From positions 299,355-363,354 of the forward strand of contig JAEUVA010000046.1 in assembly GCA_016787045.1 (NCBI GenBank): DNA of 64,000 bases, given 5' to 3'. Source of the DNA: Chitinophagales bacterium (GTDB taxonomy: Bacteria; Bacteroidota; Bacteroidia; Chitinophagales; LD1). Numbering within the stretch: the stretch's first letter is position 1; each line of letters opens with the position of its first letter. Under the pieces are notes generated by a model, which was given only the letters and a program-made list of their open reading frames with translations, had not been told where the DNA came from and did no database searches. The position numbers and the translations under genes are program-made. This document shows, one piece after another, positions 11,651-62,867 of the stretch.

Positions 11651-11715
11651 AGTGTGTATTTAGAGTGAAAATAAAATTTGCGCTTAAAGGTTCACTACAC
11701 TATTATATTCGCCAC

Positions 11716-39001: not shown

Positions 39002-40054
39002 ATGAAAAAAAATCATTTTTATCTGCTACTAGTAGCACTTACAGTCAGTTTATATTCTTGCAAAAAAGATAACAATAACAACTATGATGTACCAACCACC
39101 TATAGTTTCAGTAATGTGGACTATAGCGGCCAAACCTACCGTTTAGCCATGCTCACTGAATTATCTACCGAAATGAAAAAAGGCAACACACAGGGTACTG
39201 TAGTAGATGCTCAGGTTCTCAGAAACATGTATGCCAATACTGGAAACCCTTTCAGCAACGATACACTGAATACTTCCGGCAAAAAACTGAAGGATAAAAC
39301 ATTTACCACGGAGCAAAGTGTGATTGAGGGGTATCTTGATACCCATGCATGGGCAAGTACTTCTCCCGTTGCCGGCAGCAACGGAAGTGCTGGTGTTGTA
39401 CAGGTAGGTACGGCTAAGTATCTTTTCGATGAAAACGGCAGGGAATACACACAGTTGGTTGAAAAGGGACTATTTGGTTCACTCATCTATTACCAGATTG
39501 CTGCGGTTTATCTGGGTACCGATAAAATGGGAACTCAAGTAGCTTTAGCAGACCGCCAACACCACTGGGACGAAGCATTCGGCTACTTTGGAGTGCCTAC
39601 GGATTTTCCTTCCAACATAACCGGTATCAAATTCATCGGCAAATATTGCAATGACCGCAATGCACTCCTAGGAACAAATGTTGCCATAATGAATGCTTAC
39701 CTAAAAGGTCGTGCTGCGCTGAACAATGGCGATGAGACAACGGTTGCAGAACAAATCAATATTATCCGCGAAAACATAGAGAAGGTACTTGCCGGAACTG
39801 CCATCCATTACATCAACGAAGCGCTTGCGAATATCGCTAACGATGCAGTGCGTAACCACACACTAAGCGAAGGGATTGCCTTTGCGCGTGCCTTAAAATT
39901 CAGCCCCACCAAAAAAATTACTGATGCTCAACAGAGCCAGATAGAAACCTACTTCGGCTCAAACTTTTATACTGTGAGCACTACCGATTTGCAGGCAGCT
40001 AAAAACTTGTTGAGCACCATTTACGGATTTGATTCAATAAAAGACCAACTGTAA
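39002..40054 (+). CDS. Lipoprotein, DUF4856-like
   Basis: Lipobox 'SLYSC'. First gene of the operon with imelysin-like, HTTM and TonB-dependent receptor genes. The family call is from memory of this neighbourhood. Confidence 0.45.
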   Translation: MKKNHFYLLLVALTVSLYSCKKDNNNNYDVPTTYSFSNVDYSGQTYRLAMLTELSTEMKKGNTQGTVVDAQVLRNMYANTGNPFSNDTLNTSGKKLKDKTFTTEQSVIEGYLDTHAWASTSPVAGSNGSAGVVQVGTAKYLFDENGREYTQLVEKGLFGSLIYYQIAAVYLGTDKMGTQVALADRQHHWDEAFGYFGVPTDFPSNITGIKFIGKYCNDRNALLGTNVAIMNAYLKGRAALNNGDETTVAEQINIIRENIEKVLAGTAIHYINEALANIANDAVRNHTLSEGIAFARALKFSPTKKITDAQQSQIETYFGSNFYTVSTTDLQAAKNLLSTIYGFDSIKDQL

Positions 40055-40056
40055 GC

Positions 40057-41121
40057 ATGAAGAAGTTGAAAATTGCGGCAGCGTGTTGTTGCATAGTATT
40101 GCTGAGCGCGTGCATTAAAAAGAAGAAAGACGATTTTAATCGCACAGAGATGCTGAATAGTATGTACACCATGGTTGTTCAACCCGGCTATACAGGATTG
40201 AAAGACGCTTCTACAACTTTGCAAACTACTGCAAACATTTTTCTCTCATCGCCCGACTCTGCTTCGCTCGGTAATTTGAAAGATGCATTTTACGTAGCTT
40301 ATGCCAACTTGCAGTATGTAGAGGCGCTTGATTTTTCTAGTGAATCTGCATTGCGAAACGACTTAAATACGTTTCCGGCAGACACTGCTCAAATTGACAA
40401 TAACATAGCCAGCGGCAGTTACAATTTAAGCACGGTGAACAACCTTCGTGCAAAGGGTTTTCCCGCCTTAGATTATTTGCTTTACAGCAAATCGCTCGCG
40501 CAAACCATCTCCGATTTTTCAGGCAGCACTAATCGCAAACAGTATTTAACTGATGTGGTGAATGATATTGTGTCAAAAGCGAACGCTGCTTCCGATTGGT
40601 GGAATGCCAACAAAACCACTTTTGTAAGTGCCGCAGGAACCGATGTAGGAAGTTCAGTAGGCATGTTGGTAAACGACTTAAGTTTTGAAATGGAGCGAAA
40701 CCGCAGAGAACGTGTGGGATCTCCGCTGGGGTATATAGGTTTAATTTATAGTGGTAGTGTAGCACCACAAACAACGGAAGCATACTACAGCAGTTACTCT
40801 AAAGAAATGTTTTTAGAGAATCTAAAAGGGCTTGCCGCGCTTTATTCCGGTGCAGGTGGAACTGGCTTTGATGATTACCTAATTCATTTAGGAGCAGATT
40901 ACAACGGCACCCCGCTTGCAGATGAAATTTCTACCCAATTTGTAAAAGTGCGCACGGCTGCTGAGCAAATTCCCGTTCCATTTTCACAGGCAGTTACTAC
41001 CCACAATGCCGAAATGCAAACATTGTTTTTAGAATTGAAAAAGTTGACGGTGCTATTAAAAGTAGATATGAGTTCACAGTTGGGCGTCATCATTAACTAT
41101 AGTGATAATGATGGCGATTAA
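40057..41121 (+). CDS. Imelysin-like (Peptidase_M75-like) lipoprotein
   Basis: Lipobox 'LLSAC'. Helical, ~350 aa, with imelysin-like blocks. No HxxE metal motif seen. Confidence 0.5.
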   Translation: MKKLKIAAACCCIVLLSACIKKKKDDFNRTEMLNSMYTMVVQPGYTGLKDASTTLQTTANIFLSSPDSASLGNLKDAFYVAYANLQYVEALDFSSESALRNDLNTFPADTAQIDNNIASGSYNLSTVNNLRAKGFPALDYLLYSKSLAQTISDFSGSTNRKQYLTDVVNDIVSKANAASDWWNANKTTFVSAAGTDVGSSVGMLVNDLSFEMERNRRERVGSPLGYIGLIYSGSVAPQTTEAYYSSYSKEMFLENLKGLAALYSGAGGTGFDDYLIHLGADYNGTPLADEISTQFVKVRTAAEQIPVPFSQAVTTHNAEMQTLFLELKKLTVLLKVDMSSQLGVIINYSDNDGD

Positions 41122-42532
41122 AAGAAGCGATTGGCGTTATACGATAAACGACTGGCGAACAACCGCAAGTAATGGTCGCATGTCGCGTATCGCGAATCGT
41201 TTAACCACCTTCTTAAACAAACCCATTTATACTTCGCCTTTAACCATCTTCCGCTTTGCTTTCGGCATCATGATGTTCATATCGCTCGTGAGATTTGCTG
41301 CCAACGGATGGATTGATGCACAGTATATTCAACCCGAATTCTTTTTTACGTTTTATGGGTTTGAATGGGTAAAGCCGTTGAACGAAACAGGCATGTATGC
41401 CGTGTTTGCAGTTATGATGCTTGCTGCACTATTTGTTGCTTTTGGAATTTTTTACCGCATCAGCATTATCACTTTCTTCTTGCTTTTTACTTATGTAGAA
41501 CTGATTGACAAAACCAACTACCTCAATCACTACTACTTTATTTCATTGCTAAGTTTTTTGATGTGTTTTCTGCCCTCAAACCTAGCTGGTTTTAAAAACC
41601 TACGAGGTTTTGTATTTATCATTCAACTGCAAATAGCCATCGTATATTTTTTTGCGGGCATAGCCAAGATAAACAGCGACTGGTTACTACATGCTATGCC
41701 TCTCAAAATATGGCTGGCATCAAAAGCAGATTTACCACTCATCGGAAATTTACTTACTGAGCGATGGGTAGCGTACACATTCAGTTGGTGCGGTATGTTG
41801 TTTGATGTAAGTATTATATTTTTTCTTTTCAACCGAAAAACAGTATGGTACGCTTATGCAGTGGTAGTGGTGTTTCACACGCTAACGGCAATTTTGTTTC
41901 CGGGCATTGGTATGTTTCCATTTATTATGATGGTGTGTGCCACTATTTTTCTACCTGCAACTTTTCACGAACAAGTATTACAAATTGCGAATCGCGGATG
42001 GCGAATGATAGATTTGAAAATTCCAAGCATGCAATTCAATCTGTGGCCCAAAATTCATAATTTAAAATTTTACCTCATTCCAACTTTTACAATTTTCTTT
42101 CTAATTCAGTTTGCGCTGCCTTTCCGCTATCTTCTTTATCCTGAAAATCTGTTTTGGCATGAACAAGGTTACCGCTTTTCGTGGCGAGTAATGCTCATGG
42201 AAAAAGCAGGCACAGTTTTTTTTACAATAAGAGGCTCAGATGGAAAATTGTTTGAAGTGAATAACCGCGATTTTCTGACCATGCAGCAGGAAAAGCAAAT
42301 GAGTACACAACCCGATATGATTTTGCAATTTGCACACCATCTAGCCGAATTGTATCATAGCAAAGAGGTGTATGCAGAGGCGTATGTAGCGCTCAACGGC
42401 AGAGCCAGCCAACTGCTGATTGACCCCATGCAGAATTTATGCGAGGTGCAAGATGGGTTTGCTAATAAAGAATGGATCACATCACCCCACTCTCTCAATG
42501 AAGTAGAAGTGTTAACCGCTAGCAACAGATGA
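41102..42532 (+). CDS. HTTM-domain membrane protein (vitamin K-dependent gamma-carboxylase-like TM domain)
   Basis: 'LTIFRFAFGIMMFISLVRF...FFFTFYGFEWVKPL...NYLNHYYF' matches the HTTM pattern. It overlaps the imelysin-like gene end; the ATGs at 41108 and 41111 are likelier starts. Confidence 0.7.
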   Translation: MIMMAIKRSDWRYTINDWRTTASNGRMSRIANRLTTFLNKPIYTSPLTIFRFAFGIMMFISLVRFAANGWIDAQYIQPEFFFTFYGFEWVKPLNETGMYAVFAVMMLAALFVAFGIFYRISIITFFLLFTYVELIDKTNYLNHYYFISLLSFLMCFLPSNLAGFKNLRGFVFIIQLQIAIVYFFAGIAKINSDWLLHAMPLKIWLASKADLPLIGNLLTERWVAYTFSWCGMLFDVSIIFFLFNRKTVWYAYAVVVVFHTLTAILFPGIGMFPFIMMVCATIFLPATFHEQVLQIANRGWRMIDLKIPSMQFNLWPKIHNLKFYLIPTFTIFFLIQFALPFRYLLYPENLFWHEQGYRFSWRVMLMEKAGTVFFTIRGSDGKLFEVNNRDFLTMQQEKQMSTQPDMILQFAHHLAELYHSKEVYAEAYVALNGRASQLLIDPMQNLCEVQDGFANKEWITSPHSLNEVEVLTASNR

Positions 42533-44979
42533 AGGTTGTTTATGGCTGTATTTTAATGTGCTTACTGCAATTAGTGGTTAACCGAGTAAACGCAAAGTAT
42601 TACACCATTAGTGGAAATGTATTTAATGCGCAAACCACAGAGCCGGTGTACAACATTATTGTGGAGTTAGAACCCTCTGAGGCAAAAATGCGCACCGATA
42701 GCAGCGGTGCATTTGCCTTCAATAATTTATATCCTGGCAAGTACAGAGTAGTTTTCAAAAGCATGGCGTACGAGCGCAAAATTGTTGCAGTTGAAGTTAC
42801 AAACGAGTCCATTCATTTAGACAGCATTTTTGTAACCCCATTTGTTCGCCAGCTTACAGAAGTAACTGTACAGGGCGAGCAGCAAAATTTTGGGGTAACG
42901 CGCCTGCGAAGCATAGATGGCACTGCCATTTACGATGGCAAAAAAAATGAAGTGATACTTGTGCAAAGCATGAATGCAAATTTGGCGGTAAATTGCTCAC
43001 GCCAAATTTTTTCAAAAGTGCCGGGCATTAATATTTGGGAAAGCGATGCAGCCGGCTTGCAAATTGGTATTGCCGCACGCGGCCTTGACCCTAATAGAAC
43101 ATCCAATTTCAACACCCGGCAAAACGGTTATGATATGAGTGCAGATGCACTCGGTTACCCTGATGCGTATTATGTGCCGCCTTCTGAAGCGGTGGAGCGC
43201 ATTGAAGTTGTGCGAGGTGCGGCTTCGTTGCAATATGGGCCACAGTTTGGTGGCATGTTAAACTATGTTTTGCAACGCGCTCCGGTTGATAAAAAAATTG
43301 AGTTGACTTCGTTTACAAGTGTCGGTGCTTACAAACTGATGAACACCTTTAACAGCATTGGCGGCTCTATAAAATGTTTTAAATATTACGGCTACTATAA
43401 TTACAAGCAGGGCGAAAGCTGGCGCCCCAATGGCGGCTTTCAATTGCACAATGCATTTGCCAACATCGGGTATCAGTGTAGCGAAAAATTAGCGATACAT
43501 GCCGAATACACTTTTAGCCAATACACTGCACAGCAAAGCGGTGGATTGACCGATGCACAGTTCAATAACAATGCAAAAGTATCGCTACGCAACCGCAACT
43601 GGTTTGCTACCAACTGGAACATTCTCGCACTCACTGCCAGCTATAAGCACAATGCGTTTCACCAATTGAATATGCGCGTTTGGGGTTTTATCGGTTCGCG
43701 CAATGCAGTGGGTTATCTGGGCCCGGCCAATAGAATAGATGACGAAAACAAAAACCGCGATTTGATTGCAGACAAATACCAAAACTTAGGTGCCGAAGCC
43801 AGATACTTGTGGAAGTATTACATCAAAAAAAGTTTGAGCACGCTGCTGGTGGGTGCTCGTTTTTATACCGGAGTTACGCAAAAGCAGCAGGGCTTTGCTA
43901 GCAATGGTAAAGATGCAGATTTCAATTTTGCGGCAGATAGTTTGCGTAGCAGCAGTTACCGGTTTCCGGCAATGAACGTGGCAATGTTTGCAGAAAATGT
44001 GTTCAACATTTCCAATAAAGTAAAAATTACGCCCGGCATTCGTTATGAGCACATCAGTACAAAGGCAAACGGTTTTTACAAACAAGTACAAAATGAAATT
44101 GTAAGCGAAAATGCGGTAAATGAAAGCCGAAATTTCAGTCGCAACTTTGTGTTGCTGGGCTTAGGCGTTAGTTACAATGTATGGAAAGCAACAGAACTAT
44201 ATGCCAACTTTTCGCAAAACTATCGTGGTATTACGTTTACCGATATGCGTGTTATCCGCATCAGCCAAATCATTAATCCGAATTTAAGAGATGAAAACGG
44301 ATTTAATATGGATTTAGGTTACCGGGGTGAGATTGGCAACTGGCTTAGTTTTGATATAAGTGGCTACTGGCTGCAATACAATAACCGCATCGGGCAAATA
44401 CAAGTGGTGGACAGCGCTTACAATATTTTTCGCTACACCACCAACGTGGGTACTACACGCAGCTTAGGCGCTGAACTGTATGCAGAAATTGATTTCTTAT
44501 CGGCTGCAAATGTTTCAAAGCGCGCTGGTAATCTATCGCTTTTTGTAAGTGGCGGCTACACCAATGCAGTGTATGTAAAATCTCCGTACAACAATGTAAT
44601 TGGCAACTCGTTAGAATTTGCTCCACAACTATCTTTACGTAGCGGAGTTTCTTATCGCTATAAAAAATTCAGCACTACTATACAGGGTTCATTTACCGCT
44701 AAACAGTTTACCGATGCTACCAATGCAACGTTTACACCTACAGCAGTAAACGGTGCCATACCTGCCTATTTTGTACTGGACTGGAGTGCAAAGTACGCTG
44801 TAAAGTGTGTGCAAATTGGAGCCGGCATCAACAATTTTACAAACAACAAATACTTTACCCGCAGAGCAGTAAGTTACCCCGGACCCGGCATTATACCTGC
44901 CGAGCCACTTACGTTTTATGCCACTTTGGGAATAAAACTGAACGAAAAAGCTAAAGAATTAAAGTGGAATACGTTTTAA
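42529..44979 (+). CDS. TonB-dependent receptor with CarboxypepD_reg N-terminal domain
   Basis: ATGA overlap with the HTTM stop. Plug-domain motifs ('IEVVRGAASLQYGPQFGG') and a long beta-barrel region. Confidence 0.85.
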   Translation: MKVVYGCILMCLLQLVVNRVNAKYYTISGNVFNAQTTEPVYNIIVELEPSEAKMRTDSSGAFAFNNLYPGKYRVVFKSMAYERKIVAVEVTNESIHLDSIFVTPFVRQLTEVTVQGEQQNFGVTRLRSIDGTAIYDGKKNEVILVQSMNANLAVNCSRQIFSKVPGINIWESDAAGLQIGIAARGLDPNRTSNFNTRQNGYDMSADALGYPDAYYVPPSEAVERIEVVRGAASLQYGPQFGGMLNYVLQRAPVDKKIELTSFTSVGAYKLMNTFNSIGGSIKCFKYYGYYNYKQGESWRPNGGFQLHNAFANIGYQCSEKLAIHAEYTFSQYTAQQSGGLTDAQFNNNAKVSLRNRNWFATNWNILALTASYKHNAFHQLNMRVWGFIGSRNAVGYLGPANRIDDENKNRDLIADKYQNLGAEARYLWKYYIKKSLSTLLVGARFYTGVTQKQQGFASNGKDADFNFAADSLRSSSYRFPAMNVAMFAENVFNISNKVKITPGIRYEHISTKANGFYKQVQNEIVSENAVNESRNFSRNFVLLGLGVSYNVWKATELYANFSQNYRGITFTDMRVIRISQIINPNLRDENGFNMDLGYRGEIGNWLSFDISGYWLQYNNRIGQIQVVDSAYNIFRYTTNVGTTRSLGAELYAEIDFLSAANVSKRAGNLSLFVSGGYTNAVYVKSPYNNVIGNSLEFAPQLSLRSGVSYRYKKFSTTIQGSFTAKQFTDATNATFTPTAVNGAIPAYFVLDWSAKYAVKCVQIGAGINNFTNNKYFTRRAVSYPGPGIIPAEPLTFYATLGIKLNEKAKELKWNTF

Positions 44980-52683: not shown

Positions 52684-53244
52684 CTACTGAATTTGCAACG
52701 GGAACGTAATATCCACATCAGTATCCCCGGGGGTTTCTGTGCCGTTTTTTGTACCCGGCTGGTGGCGCAAAACCACATTTACTTGTCCTACAGATGTCGA
52801 ACCGGTTATCCATTTGCTTTCTACCCCTACAGGTAAGTTGTTATCGTCTTTATCCGTTGCGTTCACAGCCAGGTTCCCAATAATATTCTTGTATAAAAAC
52901 AAATGGTCGTTCTTCTCATTTAGAATATCAGCTGTAACATTGTGTTCATGAACGCCATCATGCAAAGCATAAACCATAATATTTACTAAGTACACATTAG
53001 ATGCATTCAACTTTATAGTGTCTATCTGTGTGGGATTATTGCCCCCTATACCATCCGGATCTGCCCAGGTAAAAGTACCCACTGAAGTGTTGGTTGCAGA
53101 ATCCGTAAACATCAATTGCACTTTGGTGATAGCATCATGCTCATCATCATGATTATGGTCATCTGGCTTGCAGGCATACAAACCGATAACTATTAGCGCA
53201 AAAGTTACAGTAATTTGAATAGCGGTTTTGAACTGTGTGGTCAT
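52684..53244 (-). CDS. Lipoprotein with His/Asp-rich N-terminus
   Basis: Lipobox 'GLYAC' followed by 'KPDDHNHDDEHD'. Starts 1 nt after the receptor stop. Confidence 0.45.
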   Translation of the reverse strand: MTTQFKTAIQITVTFALIVIGLYACKPDDHNHDDEHDAITKVQLMFTDSATNTSVGTFTWADPDGIGGNNPTQIDTIKLNASNVYLVNIMVYALHDGVHEHNVTADILNEKNDHLFLYKNIIGNLAVNATDKDDNNLPVGVESKWITGSTSVGQVNVVLRHQPGTKNGTETPGDTDVDITFPLQIQ

Positions 53245-53245
53245 G

Positions 53246-55561
53246 TTATTTGTTTTTTTGTTTTAATAAAAATTGAATGGGAATTTGTATTCGCAACGCA
53301 ACATTTATTCCTTTCTCATCGGCAAAGTACCGGAATCGGTTTAAATAATCGCGATAACGAATGTTTAATGCGTTGGTGATAGAAATGTGAATGTGTAATG
53401 GTTGTTGGCGAATAAGAAACGAAGTACCGGTTTCAAAATTGAGTAGCCAATACGCCTTAGGTGGTGCTGAGTAATCCTGATTATCGGGTACTAAAGTTTG
53501 ACGAAAAACATGGGTAACAGATGTGCCCAAATAAAATCCTTTAGTGTTTTTAAAATCTTTAAACGTGTAGCGAACCCCGTTTTCCATCCGCTGTGGAGGC
53601 ATCAGTATCAACCATTCTTTTGCAGTTAAATTTCGTGCAAAAAGCAAAGATGTCTTGTTATTGATTTCCAATCCTTTTGCAGGCATTATAGTAATGTCAA
53701 CATCACTACCCGTAAGTGATGCGTTGGTCTGTGTGTAAGCAAAAGCCGGGTAGGCGCCACGAATAGTTAACTGCGCAGGTTGTGTGGGTTTGAGGTAAAT
53801 GTAGTTTTGAATCAGGTATTGATACAAACCAACCGATGTACGAAGCCACCTGTAACTGATCTGAAGTGATGTGGACACATCTAACGAAATTTCGGGTTGT
53901 AGTTTTGCACTGCCCCGCTCAAAAGAAGCAGAGCCATGATGCACCCCATCGGCATACAACTCTACCACTTGTGGCGCACGCCAGGCAGATGCCACATTTA
54001 TATTCCACCGAACATGTTCGTTAAAATGATAATCCATGCCTATGCTGCCACTTGGCACAATCCATTGGTGTATTGGTTTAGCTCCGCCTTTTGATACCGG
54101 CAAGTATGCCTGAAGCCATTTGTAATCTAAACGTACACCGGCTTCTAACTCTAACTTTTTGTAATTCCATCTTTCAATAGCATAAACACCTGTACCAAAG
54201 TTCCAGAAGCCGGGGATAAAGTACCCATACCTATAGTTATTGGTCTGTGTACTACCACTTACACCCACTATGCCCGAAAAACCACGAGTTGGTTTATGCT
54301 CCCAAGTGAAATCTAAAGTCATGGTTTGGATTAGAAACTGAAACGCAGGGCGGTCGTCATTATCCCCAATAGGTTTATGCTTATCAAACTCAGTACGCTG
54401 GTTATGCTGTAAGGCAAATGTGGCGGCAAACATACCCACCTTATCCGATTGTAAGTATCCTCGAAATTTTGCCAGTTGATGTACAATATCTTGATATGGG
54501 CGATTAATTGCATACGAAAATTTGCCTTGCTCTAATGGCACGGGTGAGTCAATGGCCTTTTGCAAATCGGTCAGGTTGTGAATGTGCGCAGCACTCAAAA
54601 TACCGATTTTAGTTTTGAAGAAACTGTAAAACACTTCTGCTCCGTAATGCTGTTTTTTCCAGCCCAGTGCTACTGAAAAGTTTCCTTCTTCCATACCGGT
54701 ATTTTTGAGCCAGTATTGCGGTGCTTTCGCGTTAGCTCCCTTTCTAAATGTTCCTTGAATACGCCATCCCAACGAAGGCACTTTAGCCAGATTGCCTTGC
54801 AGAATACCCGAAGTACTCACCTCGGCATTATTAGAAAAAGCCGCTAAATTAAATTCACCCTTTAGTTCCTGCTCGGTAGGTAAAGGAGCGGGGTCAACTA
54901 ATATAACACCTCCAATAGCATCGCTACCATAACGGAGCGATGAAGCACCCTTTATCAATGTAATTTTTTTAGCAATGTAAGGATCAATCTCCGGTGCATG
55001 TTCACTGCCCCATTGCTGACTTTCTAACCTCACCCCATTGTTGAGTATGAGCACTCTGTTGCTATGCAACCCGTGTATAACAGGTTTGGAAATAGTGGAG
55101 CAGGTATTGATGGTGGTTACTCCGGGTAGTTTGCTCACAGATTCGCCCAAAGTTAGGCCTTGTAACTTTTGTAGTTGCACGCCTTGTATCTCTTCTGTTG
55201 CCTGAGTTACATGGCTTTCTTTTTTATGTTGTACAATTTCTAAATTTTCTAAATCATGACCCTTGTGCGAAAGGATTATACGCACAGTAGTATCTGCAGC
55301 AATAGTGTACTCTAACTGTTTGGTCTCACATCCTAAATGCGATACAGTAAACACCACTTTGCCCGCACATAAGTTTTTCAACTCAAAACGCCCTTTGCTA
55401 TCAGATAATACCTGCACATTGTTTACAGTTACCACTGCTGCTTCTAATGCATCAATGCTATTCTCATCGGTAATTTTTCCTTTTACAGACAAAGAGCAGT
55501 TTTGCGCATGCACATACACAGATGCGTACATCACCAAAAGGTAAAGCAAAAACGATTTCAT
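53246..55561 (-). CDS. TonB-dependent receptor with CarboxypepD_reg N-terminal domain
   Basis: Signal peptide. 'SVKGKITDENS...' regulatory-like domain. Plug motif 'ITLIKGASSLRYGSDAIGGVILV'. Confidence 0.85.
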   Translation of the reverse strand: MKSFLLYLLVMYASVYVHAQNCSLSVKGKITDENSIDALEAAVVTVNNVQVLSDSKGRFELKNLCAGKVVFTVSHLGCETKQLEYTIAADTTVRIILSHKGHDLENLEIVQHKKESHVTQATEEIQGVQLQKLQGLTLGESVSKLPGVTTINTCSTISKPVIHGLHSNRVLILNNGVRLESQQWGSEHAPEIDPYIAKKITLIKGASSLRYGSDAIGGVILVDPAPLPTEQELKGEFNLAAFSNNAEVSTSGILQGNLAKVPSLGWRIQGTFRKGANAKAPQYWLKNTGMEEGNFSVALGWKKQHYGAEVFYSFFKTKIGILSAAHIHNLTDLQKAIDSPVPLEQGKFSYAINRPYQDIVHQLAKFRGYLQSDKVGMFAATFALQHNQRTEFDKHKPIGDNDDRPAFQFLIQTMTLDFTWEHKPTRGFSGIVGVSGSTQTNNYRYGYFIPGFWNFGTGVYAIERWNYKKLELEAGVRLDYKWLQAYLPVSKGGAKPIHQWIVPSGSIGMDYHFNEHVRWNINVASAWRAPQVVELYADGVHHGSASFERGSAKLQPEISLDVSTSLQISYRWLRTSVGLYQYLIQNYIYLKPTQPAQLTIRGAYPAFAYTQTNASLTGSDVDITIMPAKGLEINNKTSLLFARNLTAKEWLILMPPQRMENGVRYTFKDFKNTKGFYLGTSVTHVFRQTLVPDNQDYSAPPKAYWLLNFETGTSFLIRQQPLHIHISITNALNIRYRDYLNRFRYFADEKGINVALRIQIPIQFLLKQKNK

Positions 55562-55596
55562 TAGAAATTTTAGAAATGAAACAAGAAATACGAGAG

Positions 55597-55929
55597 TTAC
55601 AGTAGCTTATACTGTAACGGGGGGCCTCGGAGGTAAGAGGTGAACTTTTTTAAACTAACGTGATTGGTTTGCAAACCAGAGGAATAAGTAGGCGGAAAAT
55701 GAACAACAAACTTATTTGAGGGTGCAATGCCACCTTCAGCCACCACTAACAAGTCTATTTTACAAAAATCGCAATGAGACTCTTCGGCACCGTGTAAGTG
55801 ATTATCACAATGCTCGGTGGGCTGATGCTGTGTAAATAGGTAGTGCAGTTCGTGGTAACCAAAAGCAAACACCACAGCAGCAGCAAGCGAAGCAGCGAAT
55901 AGTTTGCGTAACTGGTTAACAAAAATCAT
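55597..55929 (-). CDS. Small membrane-anchored His/Cys-rich protein
   Basis: N-terminal TM helix, then 'HQPTEHCDNHLHGAEESHCDFC' and a C-terminal 'RGPP'. It is reminiscent of small metal-associated proteins found next to TonB receptors. Confidence 0.45.
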   Translation of the reverse strand: MIFVNQLRKLFAASLAAAVVFAFGYHELHYLFTQHQPTEHCDNHLHGAEESHCDFCKIDLLVVAEGGIAPSNKFVVHFPPTYSSGLQTNHVSLKKFTSYLRGPPLQYKLL

Positions 55930-55949: not shown

Positions 55950-56933
55950 CTAATAATCGCGGGTGTTAATTTTCTGTGCAACTGCCGTCAGCATTTGTTT
56001 GGCAGACAGGTCAATACTTATGCTGCTGAGTGCCTCAATGGCCGCATTAAAAAGCTGCTCTGCTTTTTGGTTGCTTTGCTCATAACCACCGGTAGCTTTC
56101 ATCAATTCTTGTATGCCGGTTATCTTTTTTTGCTCATCCGCCTCTAGAAGCAAATGGTTTAACTGTTCGCGTTGGGCTAATGAAGCCAATTGCATGGTGC
56201 TGATCAGCAAATAGGTTTTCTTGTTGAGCAGAATATCACCTCCAATTTTTTTACCTACTTTTTCGCCTTCGCCAAAGGCATCAAGCAAATCATCTTTTAT
56301 TTGAAAAGAAAGGCCGAGATACAAACCAAAATCGTATGCTTTTTTTTGCTCATCGGCACTTGCTCCGGCCACAATAGCACCTATTTGCATACAGCAGGCC
56401 AAGAGTACCGATGTTTTGTACTCTACCATCTTGAGGTACTCGTGCAGTGATACATCGGCACGGGTTTCAAAATCCACATCCATTTGTTGTCCTTCAAATA
56501 TTTCAATGGCCGTTTTATTAAATATATCTAATAGAGCCGGGATTTTTACCCCCTCTACCGATGTGAGATATTTGTAGGCATAGGCCAACATCACATCACC
56601 GGCAAGTATTGCAGCGTTGGTACCATACACTTTATGCACCGTGGGCTGGCCTCTGCGGATATCTGCCTTATCCATTATATCATCGTGCACCAATGTAAAA
56701 TTGTGAAACACTTCCATAGCAAATGCGGGGCTCATGGCCTGTTGCACATCTCCGCCAAACATATCGCAACTCATTAGCACTAACAAAGGGCGTATTTTCT
56801 TTCCCTTCATTTGCATAATATGCTCTACCGGCTTATACAAATTGGTAGGGCTTGTATTAAAATTATTCTTACTAAAATTTGCTTCGTACTGTTTTAGTAG
56901 CTCTTCGGGGTGCTGCATAGTTTCTTTAAACAA
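55950..56933 (-). CDS. Polyprenyl (farnesyl/geranylgeranyl) diphosphate synthase
   Basis: First Asp-rich motif 'LVHDDIMDKADIRRG'. Second Asp-rich motif 'FQIKDDLLD'. Confidence 0.85.
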   Translation of the reverse strand: MFKETMQHPEELLKQYEANFSKNNFNTSPTNLYKPVEHIMQMKGKKIRPLLVLMSCDMFGGDVQQAMSPAFAMEVFHNFTLVHDDIMDKADIRRGQPTVHKVYGTNAAILAGDVMLAYAYKYLTSVEGVKIPALLDIFNKTAIEIFEGQQMDVDFETRADVSLHEYLKMVEYKTSVLLACCMQIGAIVAGASADEQKKAYDFGLYLGLSFQIKDDLLDAFGEGEKVGKKIGGDILLNKKTYLLISTMQLASLAQREQLNHLLLEADEQKKITGIQELMKATGGYEQSNQKAEQLFNAAIEALSSISIDLSAKQMLTAVAQKINTRDY

Positions 56934-56964
56934 ACCGTTAATCAGAAGGTTTGCCGGTGCAATA

Positions 56965-59151
56965 TTAAGATTTTGAAGAAAGGGATGTTTGCTGCAAAGA
57001 AGCCCGCCCCAGTGCCCAAAGCGGAAATATGTTTCGGTAATTAGTGTAGCTAATCATGCAATTGTGATTAAACACACCGTTGATGTGCTCTTGCACAAAG
57101 TCGCCATTGGGCAATTGTTGTGATGCTAAAAATGAAATACCGGCTGCAATGCTCCTCTGAAGCTCTGCTGTGGGCAAATGCTCATTTATCTTTAGCAATG
57201 CAAGCAATGCCCAAGCCGTGTTAACTGCCTGAGAACGGGTAGTGCTGATGTATTTTTTTTGCACACTGCTCTCAAAACTTTCGCCCCAACCGCCATCGCT
57301 TTGCTGTTTGCTGATTAAAAAACGGGCTGCTCTTATCAGAGCATTTTTCATGGCCTCTTTGTTTTGTACATCCTCCGTTTGTACATAAGCGCACAATCCC
57401 TCACAGCCAAACCAAGTACCGTAGGTAAAACATACTGCCCATGAGCCATACCAGCTGCCATCGGCTTTTTGTTGGCCCAACAAATAATTTATACCGCTTT
57501 GAATGGCCTGCTTTACCTCCACACTTCTATACTCCGGATAAATGCGATTGAACTTTATCAGCGCTTGCAAACTCGCGCTGCTGCATTCGGTATAGGAATA
57601 ATCTATCATAATATTTCCGAATACTTCTGAAGGATTTAGCCACTCTAACCACTTAGGTCCCCGGGTCAACTCGTATGATGCCCAGCCGCCATCTGTATTT
57701 TGAAAAGAAAGAAGCAGGTTGCAAGACAGTTTTAATCTTTCTGCCAACTCATTTTTGGAATAGTTGCCTTCTTCCACAGCACTTAGCATAATTTTAAGCC
57801 CTTCGGCAGTACAATCGGTAATAGGCCAACCATGAGGCGATGTAGAAAAGGGCCACCCACCTACTGAATCGTGGCGAAAAAATTGTTTGTGATCATTGAC
57901 TTCTTCGCGCACTTGCGTGCGGTCAATAAAACTAAGCGCACTTTTTGCAACCGATTCAAATTTTGAACTTGTGCTAGATTCCTTTAATGCCAGATAAGCG
58001 AATGCGGTATCCCACAATTGCGAGCCGTTGTAGCCCTGCATTTTTAGCCCATCTTCTGCCAGCCAAAGATACTCTGCCCAACGTTCGCGATGCTTTCTGA
58101 AGGGGATTGAATTTACCCCGTAAGCGTGCCATACACAAATAGAATTGATGACTTGATTAACAGGGCCTATATTGATGTAGTTGGTCTGCTCATCCTCAGC
58201 ATGTATATACTCCAGCATAAATTCTTGTGCCTTTTTCCTCCATAACTTTACAGGTGACTTTTCATACTGATTCAATGCCTTGTTTAGTAACTTCAGTAAG
58301 GATCTTTGCGGATAATACAAATCCGTTTCAGCACATTGGTTTCTTGCCTCTGCCCAATCGATTTTTTCAAATGGCTCAGTATATATTTCCTTACGGATTT
58401 CTTGAATCAGCGGACTGATTTCTCCTACAACTTTGTAACTAAAACAATACGCCATGGGCAAATACACCATGCGCGTATGGCACCAATACTTAGCAGGGTG
58501 TACGGGCAGCCACTTGGGGAGCAGCCACATTTCCGGAAACAGCGAATTGCACCCTTTCCAGTCGTATAAACCCAACACCGACAAGTAAAATTTGCCCCAA
58601 CTAGGTATTTGCGTAGCACCACCATTTTGCAAAATCCAGTTGCCGGCCTTGGTCATGGCCGGTGTATTTGCACTTTCGCCCAACAACCTAAGCGCCACAT
58701 ATTGCAGCACAGTGCCAAACATGGTGGAGCCGCCTTGTATGTGTAACCCCCAACCTCCGTCTTCGTTTTGATGGTTAAGCATGTAGCACTTCATCAATTC
58801 GTGCTCTGCATCTGCAAATGCCGACTGCGTAATATGTGATGCAAAAACCAGACCGGGCAACAAGAATAATGGGCCGCCATAATCGCCCGGCCAATGCCCG
58901 CTTTCGGCCTGCAATTGGCTAAAATAATGCCACCCTTTTTCTAATGCTGTTTCTCCTTGGGGCTGAAAATTTTTGCCCAGTTTTTGACTCCGAAAAACGC
59001 CATCCGTACTGTTCGCATTCGCTTGCTTGTTGAATCCAAAACCCTGTATCCAGTCGGCAATTTTGGAGGGCGATACAACTCCAGTTGCTTGCCAAACTTG
59101 TGCTCCAAAACTATCTGTGCATAGCGCATAAGGCGCATTTTTGTCTTCCAT
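56965..59151 (-). CDS. Oxidosqualene cyclase (cycloartenol-synthase-like)
   Basis: 728 aa. Catalytic 'ITDCTAEG' is the OSC DCTAE motif, not the DxDDTA of hopene cyclases. Multiple QW repeats ('QNEDGGWG', 'QNTDGGWASYE', 'QQKADGSWYGSW', 'QQSDGGWGESF'). 'MQGYNGSQLWDTAF' block. Confidence 0.9.
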   Translation of the reverse strand: MEDKNAPYALCTDSFGAQVWQATGVVSPSKIADWIQGFGFNKQANANSTDGVFRSQKLGKNFQPQGETALEKGWHYFSQLQAESGHWPGDYGGPLFLLPGLVFASHITQSAFADAEHELMKCYMLNHQNEDGGWGLHIQGGSTMFGTVLQYVALRLLGESANTPAMTKAGNWILQNGGATQIPSWGKFYLSVLGLYDWKGCNSLFPEMWLLPKWLPVHPAKYWCHTRMVYLPMAYCFSYKVVGEISPLIQEIRKEIYTEPFEKIDWAEARNQCAETDLYYPQRSLLKLLNKALNQYEKSPVKLWRKKAQEFMLEYIHAEDEQTNYINIGPVNQVINSICVWHAYGVNSIPFRKHRERWAEYLWLAEDGLKMQGYNGSQLWDTAFAYLALKESSTSSKFESVAKSALSFIDRTQVREEVNDHKQFFRHDSVGGWPFSTSPHGWPITDCTAEGLKIMLSAVEEGNYSKNELAERLKLSCNLLLSFQNTDGGWASYELTRGPKWLEWLNPSEVFGNIMIDYSYTECSSASLQALIKFNRIYPEYRSVEVKQAIQSGINYLLGQQKADGSWYGSWAVCFTYGTWFGCEGLCAYVQTEDVQNKEAMKNALIRAARFLISKQQSDGGWGESFESSVQKKYISTTRSQAVNTAWALLALLKINEHLPTAELQRSIAAGISFLASQQLPNGDFVQEHINGVFNHNCMISYTNYRNIFPLWALGRASLQQTSLSSKS

Positions 59152-59351
59152 TTGGGCACTAAAGTACCCTCAAAAAGTACCTTTTCTAATGCCGGGGTGT
59201 GCATAACTACGGGCTAATCAAATTCTAAATTTTATTTAATACGTTGATTTTCAATTAATTAAAGGATGTAATGGCTATATCAAAACAATTGTGAAAAATT
59301 CGCTTATTAAATTGCGGAAATTTCGCGTTTTGTTTGTGCGAAAATTACGCT

Positions 59352-60548
59352 ATGGTAATAGATATGATAAAATCTGCTCACCACCCGTCTGAATTGATGG
59401 CTATGCTCAAAATCAAGTTCAGCGGCAAGGTACCCCACGACCATAAAGAGGGGTTAGAGGTGCTGGCGAACAAACTCAACCAACGAGATTTTTGCTACGC
59501 GGCACTCAACAAAGTATCGCGCTCTTTTGCTGTAGTTATTCAGCAACTTCCCCGTGAGTTAAAAGACCCGGTTTGTGTTTTTTACTTAGTGCTTCGCGGC
59601 TTAGATTCTGTGGAAGACGACATGACTTATCCGGCAGAAAAACGTATGCCGCTGCTCCGAAACTTTCATGAAAAATGCTTTGAAAAAGGTTGGAAATTAA
59701 ATGGCGTAGGTGACTCTGACGACTACCGAACCCTGTTGGCCAACTTTGATAAAGTCATCCATCTGTTTTTACAACTGGATGAATCGTATCAGTTTGTTAT
59801 TGCAGACATCTGCAAGCAAATGGGCAACGGCATGGCCGATTACGCGGAGCGCAAAGTGAATACGCTGGAAGACTACGACCACTATTGCCATTACGTAGCC
59901 GGTTTAGTAGGCATTGGTTTATCTGCGTTGTTTTCTGCGTCCGGTTTAGAGATAAACCGATTGCAACAAGAAACAGATTTAGCAAACTCTATGGGGCTGT
60001 TGTTACAAAAAACAAACATCTCACGCGATTATTATGAGGATCTAAACTTGGGTAGAGTGTTTTGGCCCAAGCAGATTTGGGGAAAATACGCCACACAGTT
60101 AGAGGAATTTCACAACAAACCCTCCTCTCCCGAATCGCTGGCTTGTATCAATGAGATGGTCACCAACGCATTGCAACATGTATCTAACTGCATTTTGTAT
60201 TTACATCTGATCAAAAACCCTCAAGTATTTCGTTTTTGCGCCATACCACAAGTAATGGCCATGGCCACTTTAGCCAAAATATATAACAATCCGAATGTAT
60301 ATACCGAGGTGGTAAAAATACGTAAGGGCATTGCCGCCAAAATGATGATTGATACCACCAATATGGATCGGGTACGGTTTTACATGGAAAAGTTTGTGCG
60401 CGAAATACAGAACAAAATGAGCGAAAGCGACCCCAACTATGCGCTTACCCGTAAGCGGCTCAACCGCATAATAGAAGCGCTGGATGATGTACTGTTTTCT
60501 CCCGAAAACTTCCAAGAAAGAACTATTGAAGAAACCGTATTGTTTTAA
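59352..60548 (+). CDS. Squalene synthase (eukaryote-type farnesyl-diphosphate farnesyltransferase)
   Basis: 'SRSFAVVIQQLPRELKDPVCVFYLVLRGLDSVEDDM', 'YCHYVAGLVGIGLS' and 'LQKTNISRDYYED' blocks track animal/fungal SQS by eye. Start at ATG 59352 or 59364. Confidence 0.9.
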   Translation: MVIDMIKSAHHPSELMAMLKIKFSGKVPHDHKEGLEVLANKLNQRDFCYAALNKVSRSFAVVIQQLPRELKDPVCVFYLVLRGLDSVEDDMTYPAEKRMPLLRNFHEKCFEKGWKLNGVGDSDDYRTLLANFDKVIHLFLQLDESYQFVIADICKQMGNGMADYAERKVNTLEDYDHYCHYVAGLVGIGLSALFSASGLEINRLQQETDLANSMGLLLQKTNISRDYYEDLNLGRVFWPKQIWGKYATQLEEFHNKPSSPESLACINEMVTNALQHVSNCILYLHLIKNPQVFRFCAIPQVMAMATLAKIYNNPNVYTEVVKIRKGIAAKMMIDTTNMDRVRFYMEKFVREIQNKMSESDPNYALTRKRLNRIIEALDDVLFSPENFQERTIEETVLF

Positions 60549-60549
60549 A

Positions 60550-61917
60550 ATGGCCGAGGAGTTTGATATCTGTATTGTAGGAGCAGGAATAGCCGGTGCA
60601 TCTTTGGCTTGCTACTTGGGCAAGCATGGAAAACGTGTAGCCGTTATAGAAAAAAGTATGGTGGAGCGCGATGTAATAATTGGCGAATTGCTGCAACCCG
60701 GTGGTGTAGATGTATTGCAAGAAATGGGATTGGAGGAATGCTTAAATGGTTTTGATGCACAGCCGGTAGAGGGGTATGCGTTGTTTATGCAAGGCGAACA
60801 TTTCACTATACGTTACCCAAATCACAAAGCCGGCAGAGGTTTTCGGAATGGCAAGTTTTTGCAAGCACTACGTAAAGAAATGCTTGCCCAACCCACTGTT
60901 ACGGTAATAGAAGGCACTGTAGAATCACTTACTGAAATTGATGGTATCATTAACGGAGTGAAATACAAAACCAAGACAAGCGACAGCTCACAGACTATTT
61001 CGGCAAAACTTACGGTGGTGAGCGATGGCATGTTTTCTTTGTTTAGAGAGCAATTATCAGCCAATGAGAAAAAGGTAACCAGCTACTTTATGGGGCTATT
61101 GCTCAAAAGTTGCGAGTTGCCGTACAAGAACTATGGCCATGTGGTGGTAGCAGAACCCTCGCCCTGCCTAATGTACCCCATCAACGCTACTGAAACCCGC
61201 ATGCTCATTGATTTTCCGTGGAGCGAAGCACCACGCAAATCACCCGAGCTTATTGCCTATTTAGAAAACACCATAGCCCCTCAATTACCTTCAAGCATGT
61301 TGCCCTCCTTTTGGGAAGCAGTTAACGAGGGTAAGTTTAAGGTGATGCCCAACCACCACATTCCGGCAAAGCCGGTTTACAAGCCGGGAGCTGTTTTACT
61401 GGGCGATTCGCTAAACATGCGGCACCCGCTCACCGGTGGTGGTATGACGGTAGCGCTAACCGATGCAAAAAATTTAGGTGCCCGTCTAATTGCTATTCAA
61501 AATTTTGCTGATACAAAACAAGTCGGTGAACTGGTGAAACAGTTCTATGCCACGCGGCATAACCAAACCGCCACTATCAATATACTGGCCGATGCGCTTT
61601 ACGGAGTTATGCGCAATGAAGACTTGAAAAGGGCTTGCTACGATTACTTAAAGCGCGGTGGTCATTACGCACATGAACCCATCAGCATACTCTCTGCCGT
61701 ATCACGCGATGTCAATTTACTTTTATCTCATTTTTTTTCTGTAGCCGGCTATGGCATAAAAAATTTGATACGTACCAAATCAATAACCGTAGGGCTGCTT
61801 CGTAGCCGAGCCATGTTGCGCGATGCCGTAAATATTGTAGCCCCGTTAGTGCTCAACGAAAAACCATCATGGAAATGGAAATATCCGATAAAAGCGGGCC
61901 AAATAGTTTTCAGATAA
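60550..61917 (+). CDS. Squalene monooxygenase (epoxidase)
   Basis: FAD motif 'IVGAGIAGASLA'. Diagnostic 'LLGDSLNMRHPLTGGGMTVAL'. The ATG lies 1 nt after the squalene synthase stop. Confidence 0.9.
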   Translation: MAEEFDICIVGAGIAGASLACYLGKHGKRVAVIEKSMVERDVIIGELLQPGGVDVLQEMGLEECLNGFDAQPVEGYALFMQGEHFTIRYPNHKAGRGFRNGKFLQALRKEMLAQPTVTVIEGTVESLTEIDGIINGVKYKTKTSDSSQTISAKLTVVSDGMFSLFREQLSANEKKVTSYFMGLLLKSCELPYKNYGHVVVAEPSPCLMYPINATETRMLIDFPWSEAPRKSPELIAYLENTIAPQLPSSMLPSFWEAVNEGKFKVMPNHHIPAKPVYKPGAVLLGDSLNMRHPLTGGGMTVALTDAKNLGARLIAIQNFADTKQVGELVKQFYATRHNQTATINILADALYGVMRNEDLKRACYDYLKRGGHYAHEPISILSAVSRDVNLLLSHFFSVAGYGIKNLIRTKSITVGLLRSRAMLRDAVNIVAPLVLNEKPSWKWKYPIKAGQIVFR

Positions 61918-61985: not shown

Positions 61986-62867
61986 ATGCACAAAGCCGGA
62001 TTTGTAAATATTGTTGGTTTGCCCAATGTAGGTAAATCTACCCTGATGAATGCGCTGATGGGTGAAAAAATGAGCATCATCACACCCAAAGCGCAAACCA
62101 CCCGCCACCGCATTCGCGGCATTTGGAATCGAGACGATTACCAAGTGGTGTTTTGCGATACTCCCGGATATATTACACAGCCCGCGTACAAGCTGCAAGC
62201 CAATATGAACGAGTTTGTGGAAGAAGCATTTACCGATGCCGACATAGTACTTTTTGTGACAGACAAGTTTCAAAAAAATGAAGAGCAAGCAGCACTGCAT
62301 ACCTACTTACAAAAATCAAAAGCACCCGTAGTGGTAGCCATTAACAAGTTGGATTTGTGCAAGCCCGAAGAAGCCCAAAAACTATCCGAAAAGTGGCAAG
62401 CCGATTTGCCCAGCGCAACAGTGTTCATTATTTCTGCAGAGCATAAACATGCAGTGAATGAATTGCGAAATAAAATCATAGAACTACTGCCCGAATCGCC
62501 ACCGTATTTTGAAAAAGACCAGATTACCGACCGTGCTGTACGTTTTTTTGTAACTGAGATTGTGCGCGAAAAACTGCTATTACTTTACGATAAAGAAATA
62601 CCCTACAGTTGTGAGGTTGAGATAGAAAGTTTTAAAGAGGCAGAAAACATAGACCGCATACGTTGCAACATATTTGTGGAGCGCGAATCACAAAAAGCCA
62701 TCATCATTGGCAACAAAGGCGAAGCCATAAAAAAATTAGGTATTGAATCGCGCAAAAGTGTGGAGCAACTTACCGGTAAGCAAGCGCACTTAGAACTGTT
62801 TGTAAAAGTGAAAGATAAGTGGCGCAACGATGAAAATGCACTGCGCAAGTTCGGCTATAAAATCTAA
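61986..62867 (+). CDS. era: GTPase Era
   Basis: G1 'GLPNVGKSTLMNAL', G3 'DTPG', G4 'NKLD', and a C-terminal KH domain. Confidence 0.9.
   Translation: MHKAGFVNIVGLPNVGKSTLMNALMGEKMSIITPKAQTTRHRIRGIWNRDDYQVVFCDTPGYITQPAYKLQANMNEFVEEAFTDADIVLFVTDKFQKNEEQAALHTYLQKSKAPVVVAINKLDLCKPEEAQKLSEKWQADLPSATVFIISAEHKHAVNELRNKIIELLPESPPYFEKDQITDRAVRFFVTEIVREKLLLLYDKEIPYSCEVEIESFKEAENIDRIRCNIFVERESQKAIIIGNKGEAIKKLGIESRKSVEQLTGKQAHLELFVKVKDKWRNDENALRKFGYKI

Follow-up and report, generated by a model that had tools for sequence, protein, structure and literature searches.

In bacteria, sterol loci are marked by adjacent sqmo and osc genes, with the precursor coming from either Sqs or HpnCDE (Santana-Molina et al. 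2020, PMC7306690), and among characterized enzymes of the Bacteroidota the closest to the one studied here is the cyclase of Fluviicola taffensis, which yields cycloartenol. We analysed a 64-kb stretch of DNA from a Chitinophagales bacterium (contig JAEUVA010000046.1, positions 299,355 to 363,354; hereafter ‘the window’), in which genes for a squalene epoxidase (SE) and an oxidosqualene cyclase (OSC) lie no more than 1.4 kb apart with a squalene synthase (SQS) gene between them, and a gene for an isoprenyl diphosphate synthase (IDS) follows the cyclase. Judging from the sequence, we consider it highly probable that this locus is a functional and chromosomally stable protosterol module whose product is cycloartenol. 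An earlier note on the same DNA had proposed that the four genes cover every step from prenyl diphosphate to a cyclised sterol; this stands for SQS, SE and OSC, which are all of eukaryotic type, but IDS could not be demonstrated to be a farnesyl diphosphate (FPP) synthase and instead resembles geranylgeranyl diphosphate (GGPP) synthases. The features of the locus are as follows.

55950-56918, minus strand: IDS, short-chain trans-isoprenyl diphosphate synthase of 322 aa (PF00348), GGPP synthase-like and the presumed source of FPP
56965-59151, minus strand: OSC, oxidosqualene cyclase of 728 aa, predicted cycloartenol synthase
59152-59351, no strand assigned: divergent OSC/SQS intergenic control region of exactly 200 bp, aligned with the corresponding spacers of loci L083 and L001
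59291-59350, plus strand: putative operator made up of three 13-bp palindromes, overlapping the promoter or leader of SQS
59352-60548, plus strand: SQS, eukaryote-type squalene synthase of 398 aa (TIGR01559)
60550-61917, plus strand: SE, flavin-dependent squalene epoxidase of 455 aa (PF08491)

Fluviicola taffensis (PMC4919349) belongs to the same phylum as the window and combines a cycloartenol-type OSC (I453) with a canonical squalene epoxidase; it has no downstream tailoring genes and cycloartenol is the sole sterol detected, and likewise no tailoring genes were found among the window ORFs scanned (see below). The family of F. taffensis, the Crocinitomicaceae, is represented among the loci we compared by L079, with an OSC that shares 53% identity with that of the window. 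The arrangements differ, however, in that SE (Fluta_3221) and OSC (Fluta_3214) of F. taffensis are seven locus tags apart whereas the genes of the window form tight divergent operons, and in that the window derives from another order (Chitinophagales) and carries a palindrome array that we found only in a Chitinophagales subclade. The OSCs of Methylococcales (Methylococcus, Methylobacter) fall within the same broad clade, are 52-53% identical to the window enzyme and have a canonical SE gene adjacent, but they are of the lanosterol type (V453; Y/(N,Q)/V at positions 381, 449 and 453 in human numbering, instead of Y/H/I), their loci contain neither SQS nor IDS, no palindromes were found upstream of them and their sterols are further demethylated (PMC4919349). 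The earlier note had cited Fluviicola and Eudoraea as bacterial examples of sterol synthesis. The first makes cycloartenol as said; Eudoraea adriatica, although it too is a member of the Bacteroidetes with OSC next to SE (PMC4919349), produces the arborane triterpenol eudoraenol and so serves poorly as an example of sterol synthesis, the determinants of arborane products (eudoraenol, isoarborinol) being W230S, H232Y, a change at position 521 and N697Y (PMC12414744). None of these substitutions occurs in the window OSC, which keeps W230, H232, F521 and N697 and is identical at these positions to human lanosterol synthase.

The three core enzymes share their reactions and catalytic motifs with the eukaryotic pathway (ERG9/FDFT1, ERG1/SQLE and ERG7/LSS/CAS1), scoring 310-670 bits to the human enzymes. 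They differ from it in being clustered and operonic, in lacking the C-terminal anchor of SQS and the N-terminal region of SE, and in having no downstream pathway within the window. The best OSC match among the GTDB r232 representatives, which do not include the species of the window, is 62% identical and comes from a Chitinophagales metagenome-assembled genome (MAG; L001, JANWXI010000056) with an identical four-gene layout (SE 72%, SQS 83% and IDS 70% identical), the same Y/H/I triad and the same three-palindrome element. In the literature searched, we found no description of such Chitinophagales or Bacteroidota MAG clusters, which carry generic annotation only, and no discussion of Chitinophagales OSC clusters specifically.

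Enzymes of the cluster and their predicted product

In the pathway that we propose, IDS would condense isopentenyl diphosphate with allylic diphosphates to FPP, and probably also to GGPP because of its likeness to GGPP synthases. SQS would then join two FPP molecules via presqualene diphosphate to squalene with NADPH as reductant, SE would convert squalene and O2 to 2,3-oxidosqualene in a flavin adenine dinucleotide (FAD)-dependent reaction, and the aspartate of the OSC DCTAE motif would protonate the epoxide to initiate cyclization to cycloartenol. The genes would be expressed as two divergent operons, SQS-SE and OSC-IDS, with the three tandem palindromes at the SQS start serving as operator for a dimeric transcription factor whose gene lies elsewhere and which would control at least the SQS-SE operon.

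All four open reading frames (ORFs) are intact and lie in two divergent pairs around the 200-bp spacer, on the strands and with the outer coordinates given by the earlier note, while some inner boundaries were corrected. The IDS start was placed at the ATG at 56918, which gives the 322-aa length of essentially all homologues. For SQS, the ATG at 59352 is the aligned start in 11 loci, with tblastn alignments beginning at residue 7 of the ORF. The SE start was moved to the ATG at 60550, which matches the calls in loci L081 and L083; as this codon lies 1 nt past the SQS stop, the two genes do not overlap, and SE is predicted to be translationally coupled to SQS. Introns are absent, as had been noted, and so are frameshifts, with OSC, SQS and SE matching the human enzymes essentially end to end.

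SQS matched the Pfam SQS_PSY model (4.4e-52) and passed TIGR01559 with 461 bits (cut-off 287), while the HpnC, HpnD and CrtB models gave at most 56 bits; among solved structures, human SQS (1EZF) scored 346 bits and an HpnC structure 21 bits. The aspartate-rich boxes read DSVED and DYYED, and the conserved blocks YCHYVAGLVG and FCAIPQVMA are present in the alignment to 1EZF. The resemblance to FDFT1/ERG9 that had been noticed from the sequence was thus borne out, and the grouping with phytoene synthases that would have spoken against it did not appear. No hydrophobic tail able to serve as a C-terminal membrane anchor was found in SQS, the maximum 19-residue hydropathy (1.63) falling in an internal core helix, and the enzyme is predicted to be soluble.

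SE was identified by Pfam SE (PF08491; 286 bits, 2.7e-85), with FAD_binding_3 at 87 bits, and aligned to human SQLE (6C6N) with 310 bits over residues 28-459. The next-best flavoprotein in the PDB reached 66 bits, contrary to what would be expected of a generic FAD monooxygenase, which had been the stated alternative. The FAD-binding motif GAGIAG is present and the motif quoted in the earlier note, GDSLNMRHPLTGGGMTV, was found at residue 307 (in the numbering of the 477-aa ORF). The protein is without the N-terminal regulatory and membrane extension of the eukaryotic enzyme.

OSC contains both cyclase domains (SQHop_cyclase_N, PF13249, 1.4e-52; SQHop_cyclase_C, PF13243, 5e-56), the DCTAE motif at residue 446 and five QW motifs, in agreement with the initial assignment, and its catalytic D455, H232 and Y503 are conserved (human numbering, as for all cyclase positions below). 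It passed TIGR01787, a broader squalene/oxidosqualene cyclase model, with 670 bits (cut-off 323). The possibility that the cyclase would group with squalene-hopene cyclases was not borne out in models or structures: TIGR03463 (osq_cycl) gave 665 bits against 265 for the hopene cyclase model, and human lanosterol synthase (1W6K) gave 670 bits against 132 for the A. acidocaldarius squalene-hopene cyclase.

By the rule summarized in Wei et al. 2016 (PMC4919349), lanosterol synthases have T381/C,Q449/V453 and cycloartenol synthases Y381/H449/I453; in the bacteria analysed there, position 453 tracked the product perfectly, I453 corresponding to cycloartenol. In an alignment of the window OSC with the human enzyme and 86 relatives, the triad Y381/H449/I453 was present in the window sequence and in all Bacteroidota-type sequences (61/61). 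Because of this triad, the product of the window OSC should be cycloartenol. HM23 and HM31, two cycloartenol synthases of metagenomic origin that are described as early-branching subclades (PMC12414744), could not be connected with the window enzyme. A Pfam scan of 50 of the 57 window ORFs of at least 120 aa (the other seven, mostly embedded in larger ORFs, being left out) detected none of the sterol tailoring genes, namely P450 CYP51/ERG11, Rieske-type SdmA, SdmB, ERG24/ERG4 reductases and SMT. Since no tailoring genes lie nearby, cycloartenol is probably the end product, by analogy with F. taffensis. The same scan returned a weak 3Beta_HSD match (6e-12) for a 662-aa protein (11665-13653) in which an NAD-dependent epimerase/dehydratase domain is fused to a family-2 glycosyltransferase; we read this match as generic Rossmann-fold similarity and did not retain the protein as a sterol enzyme.

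For IDS, the assignment as a polyprenyl diphosphate synthase held (polyprenyl_synt, PF00348, 2.8e-76; DDIMD at residue 84, DDLLD at residue 214), but the enzyme resembles GGPP synthases rather than FPP synthases. All NCBIfam equivalog cut-offs were missed, the top models being a polyprenyl transferase and GGPP synthases: NF041003 GGPP_syn scored 258 (cut-off 500), and the FPP synthase models were not passed (NF045485 FPPsyn, 188 with a cut-off of 275; PRK10581, 124 with a cut-off of 321). The top structures are all GGPP synthases, led by 6KD7 (272 bits), the CrtE of the flavobacterium Nonlabens dokdonensis, followed by archaeal enzymes (5JFQ, 179; 1WY0, 172). The first aspartate-rich motif of bacterial type-II FPP synthases contains a two-residue insertion (DDxxxxD). 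In the window enzyme this motif is F-T-L-V-H-DDIMD, without insertion and with F at -5, and the second is DDLLD; we take the plain DDxxD with F at -5 to be the type-I GGPP synthase pattern and not that of bacterial FPP synthases, the aromatic residue at -5 being linked to chain length. IDS is probably the general short-chain synthase of the lineage, making FPP or releasing it en route to GGPP.

Purifying selection acts on each of the four genes, with dN/dS of 0.03-0.14 for the window against L081 and L083 (IDS 0.03-0.04, SQS 0.04, SE 0.08-0.11). The contig L081 belongs to the same species as the window and matches it at 96.8% nucleotide identity along 18 kb, and a contig of this identity is contained in SRR30909894; L083 is a more distant relative with an OSC 70% identical to that of the window. 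The gene order DFP, era, SE, SQS, OSC, IDS, small ORF, TonB receptor is common to all three. Neighbouring genes are not conserved at deeper distances, so the module appears to have moved within the Chitinophagales over time.

Two further patterns emerged from these comparisons. Between the window and L083 (10001-12187), OSC is 70% identical with dN 0.24, whereas IDS, SQS, SE, era, TonB and DFP are 82-92% identical with dN 0.04-0.12. The OSC differences are spread over the entire protein and the catalytic residues are kept, which suggests a cyclase that is faster-evolving or under weaker constraint in the window/L083 lineage. Against L081, dS is uneven (SQS 0.34 and SE 0.26; OSC 0.05, era 0.07 and DFP 0.007), a pattern suggestive of mosaic recombination in the SQS-SE operon.

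The palindrome array and the control region

The spacer between OSC and SQS contains three copies of a 13-bp palindrome with the consensus GCGAA-WWW-TTCGC (GCGAA-N3-TTCGC), arranged as follows.

59291-59303: unit 1, GTGAAAAATTCGC
59314-59326: unit 2, GCGGAAATTTCGC
59338-59350: unit 3, GCGAAAATTACGC, abutting the SQS start codon

When the spacer is aligned with those of L083 and L001, conservation is concentrated in the ~62 nt next to SQS, which hardly vary, and the remainder is poorly conserved; this block persists although the genes on either side are saturated at synonymous sites. Within a set of 15 loci, unit 1 (GTGAAAAATTCGC) never changes and its spacing to unit 2 is always 10 nt, whereas the distance from the end of unit 3 to the ATG ranges from 1 to 37 nt. 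The element is specific as well as conserved: perfect palindromes occur nine times in 20.4 kb of OSC-upstream sequence versus once in 869 kb elsewhere (a 383-fold enrichment, or 52-fold when at most one mismatch is allowed), and the four exact matches to the composite pattern in a metagenome collection all lie directly upstream of SQS (4/4). Single perfect palindromes were also found at variable distances upstream of solo OSC genes in L011, L014 and L019.

A search of the spacer against Rfam gave nothing significant (only sub-threshold chance matches to rli34 and speF, E ~0.3), and the palindromes pair equally well in sense and antisense (80/90 versus 79/90 positions, with six versus five G-U pairs), without strand bias. 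Because there is neither an Rfam match nor a pairing bias, the array probably functions as double-stranded DNA, as an operator bound by a dimeric regulator. More specifically, an unlinked transcription factor might act through this operator to give one Chitinophagales lineage a dedicated control over sterol synthesis, whether in response to feedback, oxygen or the state of the membrane; we judge this proposal to be evenly poised.

Other signals in the spacer are less distinct. A sigma-70 promoter and terminator scan found fewer promoter-like sites than in shuffled sequences, the model being unsuited to Bacteroidota promoters, and there is no exact copy of the Bacteroidota -7 motif TAnnTTTG in the spacer. 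About 50 nt ahead of the OSC start, at 59198-59208, is a small block, GTGCATAACTA, that is conserved in L083. Read on the OSC strand it becomes TAGTTATG, which differs from TAnnTTTG at one position, and it may be the OSC promoter.

Bacteroidota clusters without the palindromes often have an AraC/HTH_18 regulator next to OSC or SQS (L023, L029, L030, L031, L035, L048, L049 and L058; e.g. L029:7836-9176 and L029:9182-9649). These embedded regulators are 373-446 aa long, with ~290 N-terminal residues that have no Pfam match, and they are mutually exclusive with the palindromes (eight and 19 loci, respectively). In six of the eight loci the regulator is accompanied by a DUF2147 lipocalin-like protein. 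As this family has been proposed as a candidate for hopanoid transport (bioRxiv 10.1101/2025.07.29.667474), its members in sterol clusters may by analogy bind sterols. In one Bacteroidales MAG, a 431-aa DAO-type FAD oxidoreductase takes the place of the AraC regulator in the SQS-OSC gap (L062:8427-9722) and might be a sterol- or squalene-modifying enzyme. Beyond the right end of the window, L081 (1513-3329) and L083 (3743-5559) carry, after DFP, a TetR-family regulator and a thiolase of the acetyl-CoA acetyltransferase type. We rejected this pair as the linked regulator, since other motif-bearing loci do not share it and its promoter has no palindrome.

Weighing of alternative explanations

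Several points weigh against a complete and dedicated cycloartenol module. No redox partner for SE is evident; OSC, at 665 bits, missed the trusted cut-off (851 bits) of TIGR03463, an OSC-specific ‘subfamily’-type NCBIfam model with a high cut-off; the call of the product from three residues is correlative; and tailoring genes may lie outside the 64-kb window. As to regulation, no regulator gene shared by the motif-bearing clusters was found within 10 kb on either side, and the promoter could not be mapped, the sigma-70 consensus being uninformative for Bacteroidota. A cyclase with another product, such as lanosterol, parkeol or a non-steroidal triterpenol like arborinol, would leave the pathway real while changing its outcome, and could be entertained because the prediction uses three positions, because bacterial OSCs with unexpected products are known (the eudoraenol and isoarborinol synthases; PMC12414744) and because OSC is evolving two to four times faster than its neighbours in this lineage (dN 0.24 versus 0.05-0.12). 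We regard this as rather improbable given the complete Y381/H449/I453 signature, the perfect correlation of I453 with cycloartenol in the bacteria tested, the human-type residues at 230, 232, 521 and 697, and the product of the F. taffensis enzyme. The case of IDS is closer. Its greatest similarity is to characterized GGPP synthases (6KD7, 5JFQ, 1WY0) and the 322-aa family is ubiquitous in the Bacteroidota, with more than 7000 relatives, so IDS may be a housekeeping neighbour; it is better conserved than OSC between relatives (92% versus 70%) and is missing near most motif-bearing clusters, being adjacent in only five of 14. The sterol module would then comprise SQS, SE and OSC alone, with IDS a general FPP/GGPP synthase (for menaquinone, carotenoids and undecaprenol) that lies there by chance. 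However, ~19 Bacteroidota loci, belonging to different families, have an IDS gene no more than ~2.5 kb away from OSC or SE, in various orientations, which would be unlikely for an unrelated housekeeping gene and suggests that its linkage to the pathway exceeds chance expectation. In the window, OSC and the IDS gene downstream of it share a strand and are 46 nt apart. We therefore lean slightly away from chance neighbourhood, while considering it a real contender to the four-gene module.

A eukaryotic origin of the cluster, by contamination or by very recent transfer, might be suspected because the three core enzymes are closest to eukaryotic enzymes among solved structures and a plant sequence is sister to the bacterial clade in a simple tree. 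We rejected it on synteny and GC content and consider its chances negligible: the cluster lies between bacterial genes on one contig, is intron-free with operon-style coupling and has a GC content (0.43-0.44) close to that of the window (~0.41), its context is kept in relatives as distant as 70% OSC identity, hundreds of homologues from Bacteroidota, 55-69% identical, group in one clade, and the proteins are without eukaryotic membrane anchors. A different question is whether the palindromes act as RNA within the 5' leader of SQS, either as an attenuator or as small hairpins. Unit 2 and a following T-run were flagged as terminator-like, 5-bp hairpins or alternative pairing between units are possible, and unit 3 abuts the start codon. 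Yet both strands pair equally, stems of five base pairs are very weak, changes at positions 4 and 10 are not consistently compensated (e.g. A-C in L087), Rfam offers no match and single copies stand at variable distances upstream of solo OSC genes. An RNA element is thus unlikely in our view, although less so than a different cyclase product, and recognition of the palindromes as duplex DNA by a dimeric protein is the reading that we prefer.

Genomic context, distribution and significance

The flanks of the locus are ordinary bacterial genes, as the earlier note had observed, with the TonB-dependent receptor on the left lying beyond a 110-aa ORF.

61986-62867, right flank: era
55597-55929, minus strand (that of IDS): conserved 110-aa His/Cys-rich ORF, between IDS and the TonB-dependent receptor
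53246-55561, minus strand: TonB-dependent receptor with weak similarity to ZnuD/heme receptors
52684-53244, minus strand: His-rich 186-aa ORF

The three genes downstream of IDS (52684-55929), on the IDS strand, are conserved as a trio in L081 and L083; they look like a metal-uptake module and probably have no link to sterols. The Bacteroidota-like character of the genome was confirmed by the type IX secretion Por_Secre_tail domain, SprB, DUF5686 and CarboxypepD_reg TonB receptors in the window, and the nearest named relatives are Chitinophagales MAGs. Elsewhere in the window, an operon-like run of four genes (39002-44979) encodes a DUF4856 protein, an imelysin (Peptidase_M75), an HTTM/vitamin-K-dependent gamma-carboxylase-like protein and a TonB-dependent receptor; the third of these (41102-42532) includes a VKGC lumenal domain, which is curious for a bacterium.

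The exact OSC protein was absent from a collection of 15 billion proteins. A protein search yielded 5721 OSC relatives at E<=1e-50, and relatives are present in 431 species-representative genomes. In a distance tree, the window OSC falls in a Chitinophagales clade within a group of Bacteroidota and Methylococcales sequences, which we equate, by inference and without a joint tree, with the published Group 2d (Wei et al.) and OSC4 (Santana-Molina et al.). About 30 Bacteroidota loci show the SE-SQS|OSC layout. The earlier description of the locus as unusual but not unprecedented therefore pointed in the right direction but understated how common the layout is in Chitinophagales MAGs and in the Bacteroidota generally. 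The four-gene cluster itself is ordinary for its clade, and the operator-like element is the new lead.

Sterol-producing bacteria make steranes less straightforward as biomarkers of eukaryotes and inform theories on the origin of eukaryotic sterol synthesis. This locus provides a clean, minimal IDS-SQS-SE-OSC example, with cycloartenol as the predicted product, from an unsampled species of Chitinophagales, and the 431 OSC-bearing species representatives indicate that the trait is widespread in the Bacteroidota and not exceptional. The compact, anchor-free set of four genes would also be a convenient cassette for heterologous production of cycloartenol. If the palindrome array is an operator, no cis-regulatory element of bacterial sterol biosynthesis would have been described before it, within the literature searched, and the Bacteroidota would have two independent regulatory solutions for one pathway, the palindrome array and the embedded AraC-type regulator with DUF2147. 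The element thus offers a handle for finding the regulator, the signal that controls sterol synthesis and the role that sterols may play in these bacteria.

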